From Minisyncoccales bacterium (GTDB lineage: Bacteria > Patescibacteriota > Minisyncoccia > Minisyncoccales > RBG-13-42-11): a stretch of 42,435 bases of DNA. The first letter of the stretch is position 1, and each line of letters opens with the position of its first letter. Shown here piece after piece: positions 2,727 to 11,510 of this stretch. The translations under genes were made by a program, and so were the position numbers. Below the pieces are notes generated by a model. The model ran no database searches. It had not been told where the DNA came from and saw only the letters and a program-made list of their open reading frames with translations. The stretch is from the NCBI GenBank assembly GCA_049700655.1, contig JBNAUV010000002.1, forward strand, positions 1 to 42,435, written 5' to 3'.

Positions 2727-3743
2727 TTAGCCCGTCCAATAATACATCAATATGGAAAAATCTGGCAAATTGACAATGCCATCGCGATTCATATCCACGC
2801 AAGGATTATATTTTCCCCACCAGTAAAGCATAATGGAAAAATCAATTAAATTCACTCGGCCATCTTTATTAAAATCAGCGCCCGGACAAACCTGGCCCTC
2901 TTCATATCGGCCAACATAAAAAGTCAATACATTAGAATAAGATGACTTTAATCCTTCTAAGGTTTCTGCCTTGGCGCGCGTTGTATGAGTGCCCTCTTCT
3001 AAAACAGCTGTGTTAAAAAGATATTGCCAGAAGCCCAATTTATCCGCCTGAGTATTTTTCATAATTTCGGTTGATTGAATTGAAATGCTTAATTGGCTTT
3101 CTGGCGCTGTTTGGCCTAAAATATTTAAAGATTCGCCTTTGGTTACTTTGGTTTTATCTAACTCAATTGTGGGCGGAATAAAAATATCAGATACAGTGGT
3201 GGTTAAATTGTTTTGTACGCTAACAGTAAAAGAAAAAGTAATTGACCGCCGTCCTTTTGTATCTTCAGCCCATAAACTAAAAGTGTAAATACCGCCATAA
3301 AGATCAGTAATTTCAGTTTTAAAATTAGCCAGAGCGTCAGCTGTAATCATTTTCACCACCCGGCCGTCCATTAAAATCGTAATTTTTGCCAAAGGATAAG
3401 CTTTACCTTCTAAAATTACCCGTGTTTCAGTGCTGGGCGGCACACCCCCGCCTCCGCCGCCGCCTCCGCCGCCGCCTCCGCCGCTAGTGCAATTAGCAGT
3501 ATTAAAAGTACAAGCCGGAGTACAACTTAAAGAGCCACCTGTATAGCCCAAAGTTTGACAGGTGGCTCCACCCAAATCCGTACCATCGCACTGCTCGCCA
3601 GTTTCTTTGATATTATTTCCGCAAACCGTGATTCTAATTGTGGCTTGAACAGTGGCGGTTTCAGCCGCAAAAACAAAAGAAAATTCGCTCCAGAAACCGA
3701 TTAATAATAAAGAAATTATAATAATTAGAAAAACTTTTTTCAT
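2727..3743 (-). CDS. Secreted protein: Cys-rich repeat, Gly13 linker, Ig-like region and C-terminal type-I dockerin
   Basis: Signal peptide. CGNNIKETGEQCDGTDLGGATCQ...C repeat (myxococcal Cys-rich-repeat style). A run of 13 Gly. Two C-terminal 22-residue Ca-loop segments, DFNKDGRVNLIDFSIMLYWW and DMNRDGIVNLPDFSILMYYW, give the dockerin signature. Confidence 0.75.
   Translation of the reverse strand: MKKVFLIIIISLLLIGFWSEFSFVFAAETATVQATIRITVCGNNIKETGEQCDGTDLGGATCQTLGYTGGSLSCTPACTFNTANCTSGGGGGGGGGGGGGVPPSTETRVILEGKAYPLAKITILMDGRVVKMITADALANFKTEITDLYGGIYTFSLWAEDTKGRRSITFSFTVSVQNNLTTTVSDIFIPPTIELDKTKVTKGESLNILGQTAPESQLSISIQSTEIMKNTQADKLGFWQYLFNTAVLEEGTHTTRAKAETLEGLKSSYSNVLTFYVGRYEEGQVCPGADFNKDGRVNLIDFSIMLYWWGKYNPCVDMNRDGIVNLPDFSILMYYWTG
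3444..3482 (-). repeat. GGC/GGA trinucleotide tract encoding Gly13
   Basis: Minus strand reads ggc gga ggc ggc ggc gga ggc ggc ggc gga ggc ggg ggt, with an internal 12-nt periodicity. Confidence 0.9.
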
Positions 3744-5722: not shown

Positions 5723-6136
5723 TTACGGTTGCACTGCTTGTATTGTAACATCAACTGATTGCTGGCCAAAGCAACTTGAAGGATTGGGTGTGGTCAGCCG
5801 TAATTGAATCTGGACCGTGCCATTCACCGGAATGCCGGTATCAAGCGATTGATAGCTGGTGGTCAAGGCAGTATAGTTTGTCGGCGGTGAAGAACAGTCA
5901 TAATCAGTATCATTGCAAAACTGATGGACATATTGGTCAGAGCCGTTAGTTGAGGCCAAGGTCCAGGTGCAGCCTCCGCCACTGGCATTCTGTCCTTTAA
6001 TATTGAAATTTTCCGTCACATTGCCGTCATTGGTTGCTGTTTGCATATCATTCAACTCTCCAGGCAAAGTGCTTTTTGAAGTATTAGCCGGCATAATCCC
6101 ATAAGAAACCGTGCCATCAGAAACCGAGACAGAAAC
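5723..6136 (-). repeat. Paralogous module copy (the other copy is 4560..4961)
   Basis: The similarity is visible at nucleotide level too, e.g. gtttgcatatcattcaactc(a/t)ccagg and cccataag..acc...ccatcagaaac are shared. Confidence 0.8.
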
Positions 6137-8146
6137 AATCGCCGCTGAAGCAGTGGTAATTTCTGGAATCACGCTGTAGGTATTCAAAAGCGTGCCATCG
6201 GCTTTGACAACGCGCAAGCAATAGGTGGTACTTGCCGGAGCGTTGTTATCTTTGAGCGAGAAATCCCATTTGCCGTCCTGTCCCGAAGGAATGGCCGCGA
6301 CAGAGTTTGTAAAATTATTTAATTCCTCGTAGGTTTGGTTCACAATCGTATCCGCGCCGTGGGTGGGGTCATTGGTGTTGGCGGTCAAGGTCGCGCCATC
6401 AGCCGGAGTTGGATTATCATTATAAGCAATTACTGTTGAAGTTGCAACGTCATTATAAGTTTCACCGGAAAAAGCAGTATCGCATAAATTATCTGTTCCG
6501 CGTTGGGCAAATTGAAGTTTGAAACTTTGACCATTTAAAGCTAATTGATTGGCGCCGATATGCAAAAGCATTCTTAATCTGAAAGCCGCGCCGGAAGAAC
6601 CAAGAGTCGCCGCCGTATCCTGCGCCGCCAAAGGAGTTCCGACATCCGTAGAATCAAGATTATTAAACAAGCGGTAAGCGGATTGGGTAAAAGTAGGTGT
6701 GGGAATAAACCGCCAGTACGCGAAAGAAAACGGCTGGGCGATCGCCGCCGGCAGATTCGCTTGAAGCGCGGCGCCGCCGTCGGCATTTGTCCAAGTAAAT
6801 GTTGGAGTAGCATTCATAATCAAACGCTTGGCAAAAAGGTCGTTGTTCACATCCGAAAGAGTAAAAATGAGCCGGTCTTTGTTGAAAGGATCTGTCTGGA
6901 TGTCATACCATTTTTGAGGATTGCCAAAAGCCGGCGTGGGAGTAAAGTCGGTTTGAATGGTAAAGGTGCCGCCATTGCCTACAATCCAGCCGACATTTGT
7001 TGCCGCAGAGTCATTGTAAGTGCAGACGCTTCTTTTGGTCGCGCCGGAAGTCAGCCAGCCGCAGGCAACAAGTTTTGTGCCGGCAAGAGGTGTCGCGGCG
7101 GTAGGATCTAGGTTTGCAGTATTGGTCCAGGCAGAGCCTGACCAGTAACCAATCTGAAGGTCAGAGCCGGCATTCCCAATTGAGGCAAAAACCATTTCAT
7201 CGGTATTGGGATTGGCGGCTAAATCCATATTGGTTGCGTCATCAGCCCAAGTTGGCGGGGTTTGGACAGCGCTCCAGGTGCAAGTTGAGGTGCCGCCGGT
7301 GCAGGTGGCGTATCTTACGCCGTTTGTGCCGTTTGCGCCAACGGAATTTGCCCAAATAACCATTACATCGCCAGATACAGATTCATATTCAACTTCAAAG
7401 TCATCGGGTTGCGTCGTAGCTAGCTCAAGCGAGGTTTCCAGAGCAGCGGATGGCTCATTGCCCCAGGCAGTGCCTGACCAGACCATTGCTGAAAGGTCGG
7501 CGTTGGCATCAGCCCAAATAGCGGTAATAAGATTAGAAGTAGAGCGTCGGTCCCAAGCCATTTCTACCCATTGCACCACGCCCGAAGTCCGAATCGGGTC
7601 AAGATTGGTTGCCGCTGACCAGTTAGCAGTGCCGCAGCCAGTTGATCCGGCTTTGGTGCGATACGCAAGCTCGTTGGTGGTTGCAGCATTAGTTGAATAA
7701 AGCACCATCACATCTCCGCTATTGGTTTCGTAAGCAATATCAAAACGCCTGGTGGTGCCGGTGCCGCCCACAGTCACGCTCCACTCATTCGTCCACGAGG
7801 TGCCGTCATAGCACATCACTTGCAAAACACCGCTGGAATTGACATATCCAGCAATGGCTTCCTGTTTGGTGGGCGAGGTGCGCACCACAAAATTGAGGCC
7901 TGTTGCGCCGCTAACTGTTCCGGTTTCCGCACCGAAAGAGTTAGTCCCGCCGTTATACGTCCTCCACTGCGGAGTGGTGTTGCCGGAGATGCCATAAAGG
8001 ATGAGTCCGTCACCGTTTGCAACATCGAGCGCCTGCGCTTTTTGAATCTCCGGCGGAATCGCCGGATTTTGCCAAATCCTCGGAAAACCGCTGAATATCC
8101 AAGCCATTATTAAAATAAAAATAAGAAAAAACTTTGAAAAAGACAT
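5723..8146 (-). CDS. Large secreted surface protein: Trp-repeat (beta-propeller-like) region plus C-terminal shared module
   Basis: Likely start is MSFSKFFLIFILIMAWIF (signal/TM), since the tracked start at 8200 lies in a repeat arm. Recurrent G-[ST]-x-W-[TG]-N segments (GTSWTNEW, GTAWGNEP, GSAWTNTA). Thr/Ala/Gly/Asn-rich. The last 137 aa are paralogous to 4560..5084. Confidence 0.75.
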   Translation of the reverse strand: MSFSKFFLIFILIMAWIFSGFPRIWQNPAIPPEIQKAQALDVANGDGLILYGISGNTTPQWRTYNGGTNSFGAETGTVSGATGLNFVVRTSPTKQEAIAGYVNSSGVLQVMCYDGTSWTNEWSVTVGGTGTTRRFDIAYETNSGDVMVLYSTNAATTNELAYRTKAGSTGCGTANWSAATNLDPIRTSGVVQWVEMAWDRRSTSNLITAIWADANADLSAMVWSGTAWGNEPSAALETSLELATTQPDDFEVEYESVSGDVMVIWANSVGANGTNGVRYATCTGGTSTCTWSAVQTPPTWADDATNMDLAANPNTDEMVFASIGNAGSDLQIGYWSGSAWTNTANLDPTAATPLAGTKLVACGWLTSGATKRSVCTYNDSAATNVGWIVGNGGTFTIQTDFTPTPAFGNPQKWYDIQTDPFNKDRLIFTLSDVNNDLFAKRLIMNATPTFTWTNADGGAALQANLPAAIAQPFSFAYWRFIPTPTFTQSAYRLFNNLDSTDVGTPLAAQDTAATLGSSGAAFRLRMLLHIGANQLALNGQSFKLQFAQRGTDNLCDTAFSGETYNDVATSTVIAYNDNPTPADGATLTANTNDPTHGADTIVNQTYEELNNFTNSVAAIPSGQDGKWDFSLKDNNAPASTTYCLRVVKADGTLLNTYSVIPEITTASAAIVSVSVSDGTVSYGIMPANTSKSTLPGELNDMQTATNDGNVTENFNIKGQNASGGGCTWTLASTNGSDQYVHQFCNDTDYDCSSPPTNYTALTTSYQSLDTGIPVNGTVQIQLRLTTPNPSSCFGQQSVDVTIQAVQP

Positions 8147-8150
8147 TAAG

Positions 8151-8622
8151 GGGAATTTTGAATTTTTAATTCTGAATTTTGAATCAAATGCGAATTTCAT
8201 AATTTTGAAACATTATTTACATGACGATAGAATTTTGCCAAAAATAAGCGTTAATTCCTGCGCTTCCTGCCAAAGTTTTCGCAATTCATTCTTTTTCTCA
8301 GGTAGACAACGCGACATCATACGCAGCCAGTGTTTTGTTTCCTGAGCCTCTTTTTTATAAATAAAAATTTTATTCTTAAAATCCTTCTTGGAACTTGCGG
8401 CGTTCGCTTCCATATAATTGCGCCGATACTTGTGCCAGAACGAACAAGCTGACTGATAGTCGGTTTGGTAATCGCATCCTGCTTTATGGCTTTGCAAAAA
8501 TCAATAATATCTTCTCCAAATTTCGCCGTCCGTTCTTCAAAATCGTATTTAATTTTTCTTGTTTCAGTCATTTAAAAATAAATTATTCATTCGAAATTCA
8601 AAATTCAAAATTTAAAATTGAA
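8151..8622. repeat. A/T-rich inverted-repeat scaffold enclosing a second (frameshifted) 4HB ORF
   Basis: Left arm is gaattttgaatttttaattctgaattttgaatc. Right arm is cgaaattcaaaattcaaaatttaaaattgaac. They contain the complementary 12-mers tgaattttgaat/attcaaaattca. The unit style matches 5271..5722, but arm polarity relative to the ORF is reversed. Confidence 0.55.
8213..8571 (-). pseudogene. Four-helix-bundle protein gene with a 1-nt frameshift
   Basis: Frame A gives MTETRKIKYDFEERTAKFGEDIIDFCKAIKQDAITKPTISQLVRSGTSIGA. The family pattern then continues in frame B (NYMEANAASSKKDFKNKIFIYKKEAQETKHWLRMM...). The junction at about 8415 (ggcgcaattatatgg) looks like the loss of one A. Confidence 0.7.
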
Positions 8623-8770: not shown

Positions 8771-8795
8771 CTGTCAACAATTACTGTCAACAATT
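8771..8795. repeat. Tandem direct repeat ctgtcaacaatt x2 (13-nt period)
   Basis: Read directly from the sequence. On the minus strand each copy contains TTGACA, and TATAAT/TAAAAT lie 14-19 nt downstream. It may be a promoter or operator for the surface operon, but the spacing is non-ideal. Confidence 0.5.
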
Positions 8796-8828
8796 CCCAC
8801 CCCTATTTAACCCCCCCATACCGAGCTA

Positions 8829-8863
8829 TCCCAAGGTTCGACCTCGGGGCGGCAACCTTGGGA
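8829..8863. repeat. REP-like hairpin, degenerate inverted copy, 3' of the RAYT gene
   Basis: tcccaaggttcgacctcgggg differs at 2 positions from the reverse complement of the 21-mer at 9411 and 9639. The outer 10-bp stem is tcccaaggtt/aaccttggga. Confidence 0.6.
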
Positions 8864-8894
8864 CAGTAACCTTGATATGGTATGGTTCTATTAT

Positions 8895-9623
8895 CTATTC
8901 TAATTCTAAGTAAAATGAATTGTTAATAAATTCAGCTTTGTATTTTATCCAATTTTCTATACTCTTTTTAAACAGCTTAATACCACCTATTGATTTTATC
9001 AAAAAGTCTCTTTCCGACACTGAAGGAAAATTCTTTTTTCCAATATAATCTAGATAACTTGACCACCTGTATGTCTCCAGAAACTTCATTGTTTTTTTGG
9101 GATTTTTAATTCCTTTTTCTTTCCATTTTGGCTCTATTAAAGAAATAGGGTTAGTATGGATATATACAGAAACATTTTTCAATTGATTATTATCTTTAAT
9201 ATGAACGGTCCGAAAGCCCTGAAAGAGATGGCCCTTTCTATTATATTTTTTATTAAAATAAACTGCATAACCAGTTCCAACTTTTCTCATAAATTCAGTA
9301 ATGCCCCCATCTTTAATCTGTTTAACTAATAAGTGAATATGATTGGGCATTAAACAAAAACTTAATATCTGAACAAACTTTTCCCTTTTATCAACTTCCT
9401 GCGGCAGTTTTCCCGAGGTCGAACCTCGGGATTTCTTTTTTAAATTGGCACGGGCTTTTCGACGGTCTTTGATAGAAACTGATTTTGCATTATTAAATTC
9501 GTAAAGTGAAAAAATACCCCGATAATAATCGTCGATATTCTTAAAAATCAAAGAATCTCCCACACCCCGAATCACAAGATGATAAAATTCATTATTAATT
9601 AATTCTATCTGTTTTCTTGCCAT
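8895..9623 (-). CDS. REP-associated tyrosine transposase-like protein (IS200-like Y1/HUH transposase family)
   Basis: N-terminal FYHLVIRG, HUH motif LMPNHIHLL, GHLFQGFR, catalytic-Tyr motif YIHTNP, and YRWSSY. The start is set at MARKQIE. The tracked extension to 9704 runs through the hairpin and the 16S terminator. Confidence 0.75.
   Translation of the reverse strand: MARKQIELINNEFYHLVIRGVGDSLIFKNIDDYYRGIFSLYEFNNAKSVSIKDRRKARANLKKKSRGSTSGKLPQEVDKREKFVQILSFCLMPNHIHLLVKQIKDGGITEFMRKVGTGYAVYFNKKYNRKGHLFQGFRTVHIKDNNQLKNVSVYIHTNPISLIEPKWKEKGIKNPKKTMKFLETYRWSSYLDYIGKKNFPSVSERDFLIKSIGGIKLFKKSIENWIKYKAEFINNSFYLELE
9411..9431. repeat. REP-like palindromic 21-mer inside the RAYT coding sequence
   Basis: tcccgaggtcgaacctcggga (8-bp stem, 5-nt loop) is identical to 9639-9659. 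It is in frame and encodes SRGSTSG. Confidence 0.9.
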
Positions 9624-9638
9624 AATTGTACCAAGTCG

Positions 9639-9659
9639 TCCCGAGGTCGAACCTCGGGA
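9639..9659. repeat. REP-like palindromic 21-mer upstream of the RAYT start
   Basis: tcccgaggtcgaacctcggga is identical to 9411-9431 and lies 228 nt (76 codons) from it. Confidence 0.9.
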
Positions 9660-9684: not shown

Positions 9685-9714
9685 AAAATAATAAACCCAG
9701 CCAAAATGGCTGGG
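9685..9714 (-). terminator. Intrinsic terminator downstream of 16S rRNA
   Basis: Minus strand: CCCAGCC-atttt-GGCTGGG followed by tttattatttt. Confidence 0.65.

Positions 9715-9853: not shown

Positions 9854-11510
<1,657 letters not shown>

Follow-up and report, generated by a model that had tools for sequence, protein, structure and literature searches.

A recurrent in-frame copy of the flanking hairpin in a family of RAYT-like Y1 transposase genes of Patescibacteria

Why should the gene of a transposase-like enzyme carry, within its own reading frame, the same DNA hairpin that borders it? The question is raised by a Y1/HUH gene (HUH, two histidines around a hydrophobic residue) in a stretch of 42,435 nucleotides (nt) of contig JBNAUV010000002.1 from an ultra-small Minisyncoccales bacterium, referred to here as the window. 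The gene lies at 8895-9623 on the minus strand, with its ATG at 9623 and its stop codon at 8895-8897, and its product resembles the REP-associated tyrosine transposases (RAYTs; REP, repetitive extragenic palindromic sequence); the translation of the open reading frame (ORF) comprises 242 amino acids and carries PNHIHLL, YIHTNP and YRWSSY. An earlier note on this DNA had seen hairpin copies around and inside the gene and had taken the inner one for an insertion that left the frame intact. Comparison with homologs placed the inner copy in a three-hairpin layout that recurs through a large Patescibacterial family.

Three copies of one hairpin in the window gene and its relatives

The 21-mer TCCCGAGGTCGAACCTCGGGA is identical at 9639-9659 (minus strand), 15 nt before the ATG, and at 9411-9431 (minus strand), 228 nt further downstream and inside the ORF; no chance match is expected, and none arose in 100 shuffles. 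The inner copy spans codons 65-71, is translated as S65-R-G-S-T-S-G71 and has a loop of exactly one codon. The earlier note was exact about the positions, the spacing, the peptide and the intact frame, and the internal and flanking hairpins are one and the same element. Its phrase 'perfect palindromic 21-mer' holds for the stem, a perfect inverted repeat of 9 bp, but the stem closes around a 3-nt loop and the whole is not a full palindrome. A third copy, degenerate and in the opposite orientation, was found after the stop as the note had described: it occupies 8829-8849 (minus strand), has two mismatches and an inverted loop, and is nested in a larger hairpin (8826-8866; 13-nt arms at 8826-8838 and 8854-8866) that starts 28 nt past the stop codon. 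The dispersed REP family that had been envisaged did not appear in the window, where no further copy of the 21-mer occurs in 42 kb even with three mismatches allowed.

A search with the window protein returned 4,275 homologs (representatives of clusters at 90% identity), nearly all of them from Patescibacteria, and 79 genomic loci were retrieved for homologs. Scanning these loci for hairpins revealed one arrangement repeatedly: a GC-rich hairpin precedes the ATG by a few to about 50 nt, another that matches it lies within the ORF at nt +183 to +226, and a third, also matching, follows the stop codon at a distance of 0 to about 50 nt, with stems that vary from locus to locus (CAGAGAA, GGCGAAG, AGCGGAGG, TGTTGTAT, GGTAAAG, TTGTGAGC and others). 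The layout was also recovered by a comparison in which no hairpin was assumed and 10-mers on either strand were matched between the 100-nt flanks and ORF nt +150 to +280; 65 of 81 genes shared a 10-mer between flank and ORF, 52 of the 81 did so with both flanks, and 67 shared one between the upstream and downstream flanks. The shared positions were confined almost entirely to the two 30-nt bins that cover +180 to +240 (622 positions each for the upstream and the downstream flank), compared with 17 and 22 in the adjoining +240 bin and 0-7 nearly throughout the remaining bins. Furthermore, 88% of the flank-shared ORF segments fold into at least six base pairs. Sliding-window folding energies calculated for 76 genes showed three dips, one centred about 30 nt before the ATG, one within the ORF and one just past the stop codon, at the places of the three copies; the in-ORF zone reached -10 kcal/mol or lower in 74% of the genes, and the control zones in 7-20%. 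A hairpin at the same codon in relatives, which the earlier note had named as a check, is therefore a feature of most homologs.

The layout is also present in a second subfamily, about 40% identical and likewise Patescibacterial (Minisyncoccota, Kaiserbacteria), a search with which gave 4,727 hits (clusters at 90% identity, which may overlap the first hit list). Some of its members carry the very same 19-mer and SRGSTSG peptide as the window gene. In two loci (L024 at 3066-3110 and L053 at 10222-10290) the ORF contains two inverted hairpin copies as an in-frame, REPIN-like doublet, and the linkers there are therefore longer; such in-ORF doublets are rare, and they indicate that the site can gain copies.

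A distant RAYT-like branch with an insertion ahead of the HUH motif

The match of the protein to the Pfam family Y1_Tnp (PF01797) has an E-value of 4.5e-10, and its 40.2 bits exceed the cut-off of 23. Its HUH motif, H95-I-H97, is encoded at 9333-9341, the YIHTNP segment with the catalytic Tyr154 at 9147-9164 and YRWSSY at 9054-9071 (all minus strand); H95, H97 and Y154 are invariant in 121 sequences, as is N158. YIHTNP is of the Y---NP type, the form that distinguishes RAYT/TnpAREP class 2 from proteins with Y---Q (Quentin et al. 2018, PMC6006769). The score with the NCBIfam equivalog model REP_Tyr_transpos was 39.7 bits, short of its cut-off of 80. A first AlphaFold model, made with 30 close homologs, had a predicted local distance difference test (pLDDT) score of 49 and was unusable; after the second subfamily had been added, the model on 121 sequences reached a pLDDT of 90.9. 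Compared by Foldseek with the Protein Data Bank (PDB), this model gave as its top match the E. coli RAYT-REP complex (4er8_A; E = 7e-6), followed by the IS608 and ISDra2 TnpA proteins, while a PDB search by sequence found a marginal ISDra2 match only (E = 0.03). The protein is RAYT-like in fold and motifs, on a distant branch, and the Y1 homology that had been read from the motifs of the window gene is borne out.

Profile comparison by hhalign aligned residues 76-160 with residues 40-121 of E. coli RayT. The part ahead of the HUH motif measures 94 amino acids as against 58 in E. coli RayT, which leaves about 36 extra and agrees with the earlier impression of a linker longer than in known RAYTs. 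This family-specific insertion (residues ~44-80; 9384-9494, minus strand; from the hhalign comparison and the AlphaFold model) sits between helix alpha-A and the strand that precedes the HUH motif. In the model it forms an extra basic helix (51-65) and a loop of lower confidence (66-83), and the residues coded by the hairpin, 65-71, are placed at the junction of the two.

Among known systems, the REPtron of E. coli RayT (PDB 4ER8; subclass 2.2, Quentin et al. 2018) is the best structural match and is alike in the Y1/HUH fold, the Y---NP motif, the usually inverted cognate hairpins at its borders and the fixed locus; the REP of S. maltophilia likewise has a perfect 8-bp stem and a 3-nt loop (PMC8266576). 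The Patescibacterial family differs from it in having no GT[AG]G foot, in sparse dispersal, in the third copy within the ORF, in the insertion before the HUH motif, in a long C-terminal helical extension and in the presence of several divergent paralogs per small genome, each with a hairpin of its own.

An in-frame copy of the own hairpin in a RAYT gene is already known from TnpAY1 subclass 2.4 (Bertels group 4), in which REPs lie in frame within tnpAREP genes, a property termed remarkable and unique to the subclass (Quentin et al. 2018, PMC6006769). The two groups are alike in carrying their own flanking REP inside the coding sequence, with the frame intact and in a variable peripheral region. 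In subclass 2.4, however, which occurs mainly in Cyanobacteria and Bacteroidetes, REPs of the canonical GTAG or double-foot type are inserted between HuH and Y, and both the length and the sequence of these insertions vary greatly; HuH and Y are separated by a median of 88 amino acids, the motifs are WQ and YIxNNP, and there is no C-terminal tail. The window family instead has its hairpin N-terminal to HuH and in a fixed codon phase, an HuH-Y distance of 59 amino acids and Patescibacterial hosts, and the window protein has FQ, YIHTNP and a WSS-containing tail of about 80 amino acids; its NHIH alone fits the NH[IFV]H of the subclass. What appears to be new, from the loci compared, is the scale and regularity of a conserved, co-evolving three-copy layout in a large Patescibacterial family, at another position in the gene.

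By motifs and length the family looks more like subclass 2.1, that of the TIRYT genes and TIRtrons (Di Nocera et al. 2013, PMC3733652; Quentin et al. 2018), than like subclass 2.4. The lengths are similar (median 238 amino acids in subclass 2.1), and, by the published table only, the two share NHxH, an FQ variant of the W motif, a Y[IV]HLNP-like motif and an SS-containing tail; TIRYT genes also have non-canonical, rarely dispersed flanking inverted repeats and occur several to a genome, each with its own repeats. They differ in that GGGGWSAS is common to the published TIRs, for which no copy within the gene is reported, and in that subclass 2.1 is described as being without flanking secondary structures. 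The TnpA proteins of the IS200/IS605 group (IS608, ISDra2) have the same catalytic fold and subterminal hairpins bordering the gene, but they have a Y---Q motif, many near-identical copies and often a tnpB partner, in contrast to the Y---NP motif of the window family, the confinement of its identical proteins to one neighbourhood, paralogs that are at most 83% identical and the absence of an adjoining tnpB in the window.

Matching, dispersal and mobility of the hairpins

A covariation alignment was built from 65 ORF segments that had been picked by flank sharing and not by pairing. Paired cells made up 88.9% of this alignment, compared with 55% after shuffling and 36-49% after sliding, and at all nine in-ORF base pairs both sides had changed in a compensatory manner; the covariation score was 0.76 versus 0.18, and was reached in none of 500 shuffles. 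The core GAG/CTC and the C-N-G loop are conserved; the outer pairs and the innermost ones are variable. Of 45 genes with perfect stems, 42 have the middle base of a codon as the hairpin centre, a phase that holds in the second subfamily also. Such constancy of phase, together with the RGxxS consensus of the protein alignment, would accord with selection on the encoded peptide, the DNA palindrome being its by-product. The peptides are diverse, however (SRGSTSG, NREQFS, DRDRVSV, GGQSS and others), the nucleotides match flanking copies that are not translated, and selection on the peptide leaves both these non-coding copies and the compensatory base-pair changes unexplained; we regard this explanation as largely refuted.

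The matching of copies within a locus is accompanied by change between loci. Close relatives (72-83% amino acid identity) have hairpins that differ by whole base pairs, as in AGAGAA/TTCTCT versus GGAGAA/TTCTCC or AGAGGA/TCCTCT, and paralogs of one genome, for example those at the six CAYIJU01 loci, have a distinct hairpin each. The change of one stem pair at three sites amounts to six coordinated substitutions, and relatives differ by several such pairs, which argues that the copies have been homogenised by copying. Between YEFN and MPNH, the linker measures 46 amino acids in the median, both in the 61 genes with an internal match and in the 13 without one, 12 of which keep matched flanks. Because the median is the same in both groups, the internal copy has been lost by decay and not by excision, and across the 74 linkers we found none of the presence/absence length polymorphism expected of recurrent insertion. 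The insertion event once proposed for the window gene accordingly gives way to a site of fixed phase that is common to two subfamilies about 40% identical; judged by these alignments, the internal hairpin is an ancestral site and apparently a concertedly evolving part of a REPtron-like unit, and not a chance insertion.

The two flanking copies have opposite orientations in 19 of the 27 cases that could be scored, including, on our reading of the loci, all six with asymmetric loops of 5-7 nt, and the internal copy matches either flanking copy. The loci thus have the REPtron arrangement of a gene flanked by cognate hairpins. The name REP-like is only loosely justified; a GT[AG]G foot was found in 8 of 111 hairpins, which is the random rate (6.6% expected), and at none of the window copies, and dispersed copies are few. 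Solo copies numbered 10 in 559 kb of locus flanks (about 0.02 per kb), with six more in other loci of the same genomes. Within the stretches scanned here, namely the window, the flanks and the loci, the hairpins appear sparsely dispersed and too few for a high-copy REP family.

Tandem solo copies of the hairpin of the locus itself were seen in one case (L012 at 7630-7680 and 7800-7835) right past the stop of an unrelated ORF and beside an assembly gap, which is a typical REP position. A scan of metagenomes with the exact 19-mer of the window, CCCGAGGTCGAACCTCGGG, found it, solo or as a doublet, in about 60 contigs (L080-L146) with G+C contents of 0.31-0.70; half of these copies lie within long stop-free frames, and many stems are extended by locus-specific bases. 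The contigs form a heterogeneous set that is not assignable to the window organism.

A selfish, REP-like hairpin could sit as a tolerated passenger in the only permissive loop of the gene, persisting or being re-inserted there, or maintained only by copying, with no role for the gene. In-frame intragenic REPs and Rickettsia palindromic elements (RPEs) are documented (PMC3733652, PMC6006769), among them the REPs of subclass 2.4, and the RPEs are alike in being short palindromes translated in frame in functional proteins (PMC3733652). The variability of the hairpin-coded peptide and its place in a loop of lower confidence accord with a passenger, as do the range of linker lengths (39-70 amino acids), the doublets in some ORFs, the loss of the internal match in 16% of genes and the tandem solo copies behind unrelated genes. 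RPEs, however, are scattered over unrelated genes and sites, whereas the window family has one orthologous site, in the gene of the presumed cognate enzyme, that co-varies with the flanks. The site and codon phase are constant in those 42 of 45 genes and across both subfamilies, linkers are equally long with and without the hairpin, and very few dispersed copies are available as donors. Although the loop is under weak constraint, the stem is perfect or nearly so in about 80% of genes, which requires a maintaining force. We consider a passenger unlikely, although it deserves to be kept in view beside the ancestral, concertedly evolving site.

Two proteins (P0181 and P0068) were each found, identical, on 24 contigs from many samples with neighbours that were always the same, and the top pairwise identity among the sampled genes was 83%. 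Because identical proteins keep their neighbours and pairwise identity does not exceed this value, the gene behaves as a resident RAYT-like gene and not as an insertion sequence. Population variants at two loci amounted to 0-1 variable sites and provided no usable polymorphism of the hairpin. The only run that held the window sequence, in Logan contigs, contained a 0.12 share of the sampled words at patchy depth. The alignment with the closest homolog (L122) was limited to the gene itself, between organisms too distant to bear on mobility. By blastn, no partial gene copies starting at the internal hairpin were found, save a weak 54-nt match in locus L004; an apparent set of such copies had arisen only from the merging of scattered 10-mers.

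In the window, the neighbours of the gene are a 23S_rRNA_IVP fragment and an ORF without a Pfam match. The former (8213-8571, minus strand) belongs to the '23S rRNA intervening sequence protein' genes, whose product is a four-helix bundle, and is split over the overlapping ORFs 8317-8571 and 8213-8497; it matches Pfam PF05635 with 29 bits, under the cut-off of 33.8, and the split reflects a frameshift in a pseudogene or else a fault of assembly. An ORF at 5723-8200 (minus strand), without a Pfam match, encodes 825 amino acids with a hydrophobic N-terminal segment, and may have been acquired from elsewhere because its G+C content (0.47-0.54) exceeds that of its surroundings (about 0.35). Between the downstream hairpin and the next gene lies a perfect tandem repeat of the 12-mer CTGTCAACAATT (two units, 8771-8795), each unit of which contains TTGACA on the minus strand. 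A TAGAAT or 'LE-stop' motif beside the hairpins was considered as a guide, cleavage or promoter signal and rejected: TAGAAT precedes the hairpin in some loci only, and TTAGAATAA at the 3' end is expected anyway from AT-rich codon usage.

Upstream of the unit, a terminator-like hairpin with a T-run (9696-9714, minus strand) stands between it and the 16S rRNA gene (9854-11509, minus strand), downstream of the latter; the unit is placed directly after the 16S terminator, as had been noted, but the position is incidental. Linkage of the unit to rRNA or tRNA genes was rejected, a 16S gene being nearby only in the window and a tRNA gene lying within 600 nt of 3 of 83 genes. The 3' end of the 16S rRNA (9854-9875, minus strand) reads ...GGATCACTACATTTCTA, and because it has CTACA in place of the usual anti-Shine-Dalgarno CCTCC it suggests that translation initiation in this organism may be independent of Shine-Dalgarno pairing. 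The 16S match covers 1,656 nt compared with 1,533 nt in the Rfam model, leaving about 120 nt extra inside the gene. A tRNA-Ile(GAT) gene at 53-125 is on the same strand as the 16S gene but 9.7 kb away, with protein-coding genes between, and the 42-kb window contains no 23S gene; the rRNA operon is therefore split or unlinked.

A proposed role for the internal copy

We propose that gene and hairpins would form a self-contained REPtron-like unit, with a cognate hairpin before the start codon, one after the stop codon and one in the ORF at an ancestral site, where it codes for a poorly conserved surface loop in the family-specific insertion. Concerted evolution would maintain the likeness of the three copies, through the copying of one site from another and not through independent substitutions. 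Because the copies appear to be homogenised by copying, the internal one would be an active partner in whatever acts on the flanks, recognised as a folded single-strand DNA hairpin by the machinery of the flanking copies. The likeliest agent would be the enzyme that the gene encodes, working in cis whenever replication or transcription leaves the locus single-stranded. By binding or nicking inside its own gene the enzyme would exert negative feedback on its own expression, and the homogenisation of the three sites would follow as a by-product. The descriptive part of this account is very probably right; the whole package, from the three-copy unit and concerted copying to the enzyme in cis and the feedback, is evenly poised between holding and failing; and the feedback step taken by itself is tentative. 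That the enzyme binds the hairpins, that copying depends on it and that its binding to the internal copy lowers expression is what we infer.

There are conceptual parallels for an enzyme whose substrate lies within its own coding sequence and whose action is coupled to its own gene. The HUH replication initiators encoded by phiX174 gene A and pT181 repC have their nick sites inside their own genes, but these are phage and plasmid replication origins, and there is nothing replicon-like in the window unit. As for the substrate, folded single-strand DNA is a known substrate of Y1 enzymes, and TnpAREP enzymes bind, cleave and transfer strands at REPs with a perfect 8-bp stem and a 3-nt loop (PMC8266576).

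The hairpins might instead act at the level of the mRNA, stabilising its 5' end, serving internally for attenuation or for the binding of RNase III or a protein, and terminating it at the 3' end. In favour of this, the transcription unit bears one copy at its 5' end and one at its 3' end, a T-rich 3' flank follows 27-30% of the copies on either side of the gene, and roles of REPs in mRNA stability and termination are known (PMC3733652). Such roles at three positions need no identical sequences, however, and the copies match at the 10-mer level; the orientation of the loop, moreover, flips among loci. In imperfect stems, mismatches of the G.U type (G.T in the DNA) are not favoured over A.C (13 versus 15), so that there is no wobble bias on the sense RNA, and a T-rich tail on the sense strand follows just 4% of in-ORF copies. 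The upstream hairpin is separated from the ATG by a -10-like sequence in several loci, and in the window TAGAAT stands 2 nt before the upstream hairpin, so that the full 5' arm of the hairpin may not be transcribed. A role at the RNA level is improbable, and a role as folded single-strand DNA is weakly favoured over one as sense RNA because of the equal mismatches, the few T-rich tails and the variable upstream position with its -10-like sequences.

An A-run followed by a hairpin is, on the opposite strand, a hairpin followed by a T-run, and the copies could accordingly serve as terminators or insulators against antisense or read-through transcription. Both window copies are terminator-like on the plus strand, antisense to the gene, and the sense 5' flank is A-rich at all three sites, with at least 6 A in 10 nt in 39-52% of cases. 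The genome is AT-rich anyway, however, the A-rich flank of the in-ORF copy is coding sequence for a conserved Lys/Arg-rich helix, and identity within loci combined with difference between loci is left unexplained; we regard this function as very unlikely.

Several points weigh against an internal copy acted on by the enzyme of its own gene. In 12 of the 74 genes the in-ORF match has been lost while the matched flanks are kept and the linker is of unchanged length, so the internal copy is dispensable in some lineages. The cleave-and-join chemistry of HUH enzymes alone leaves copying between sites unexplained, and the hairpins could also become alike independently of the enzyme, through template switching in replication. 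In addition, the upstream hairpin lies 3-128 nt before the ATG and its position relative to likely promoters varies, which gives no single regulatory geometry.

How REPs spread has still to be explained (PMC8266576), and the function of RAYTs and the matching of RAYT to hairpin are unsettled; the family described here offers an unusually clean system, with three cognate sites to each gene and hardly any other copies in the genome. Its size (more than 4,000 hits, as 90% clusters, in each subfamily search) and its paralogs with distinct hairpins make specificity, action in cis and concerted evolution accessible. The layout also indicates that a nucleic-acid structure can be a conserved feature of a protein-coding segment, and it calls for caution in reading the variable linker of these proteins, which is a translated DNA element. 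The internal hairpin may even be a self-addressed target, at which the Y1 enzyme would bind or nick its own coding strand, set its own expression and drive the copying of the three hairpins; this is possible but doubtful. If true, it would provide the first natural system with a direct read-out of RAYT-type activity at a defined, single-locus set of substrates, and the specificities of enzyme and hairpin would co-diversify among paralogs in genomes of about 1 Mb.

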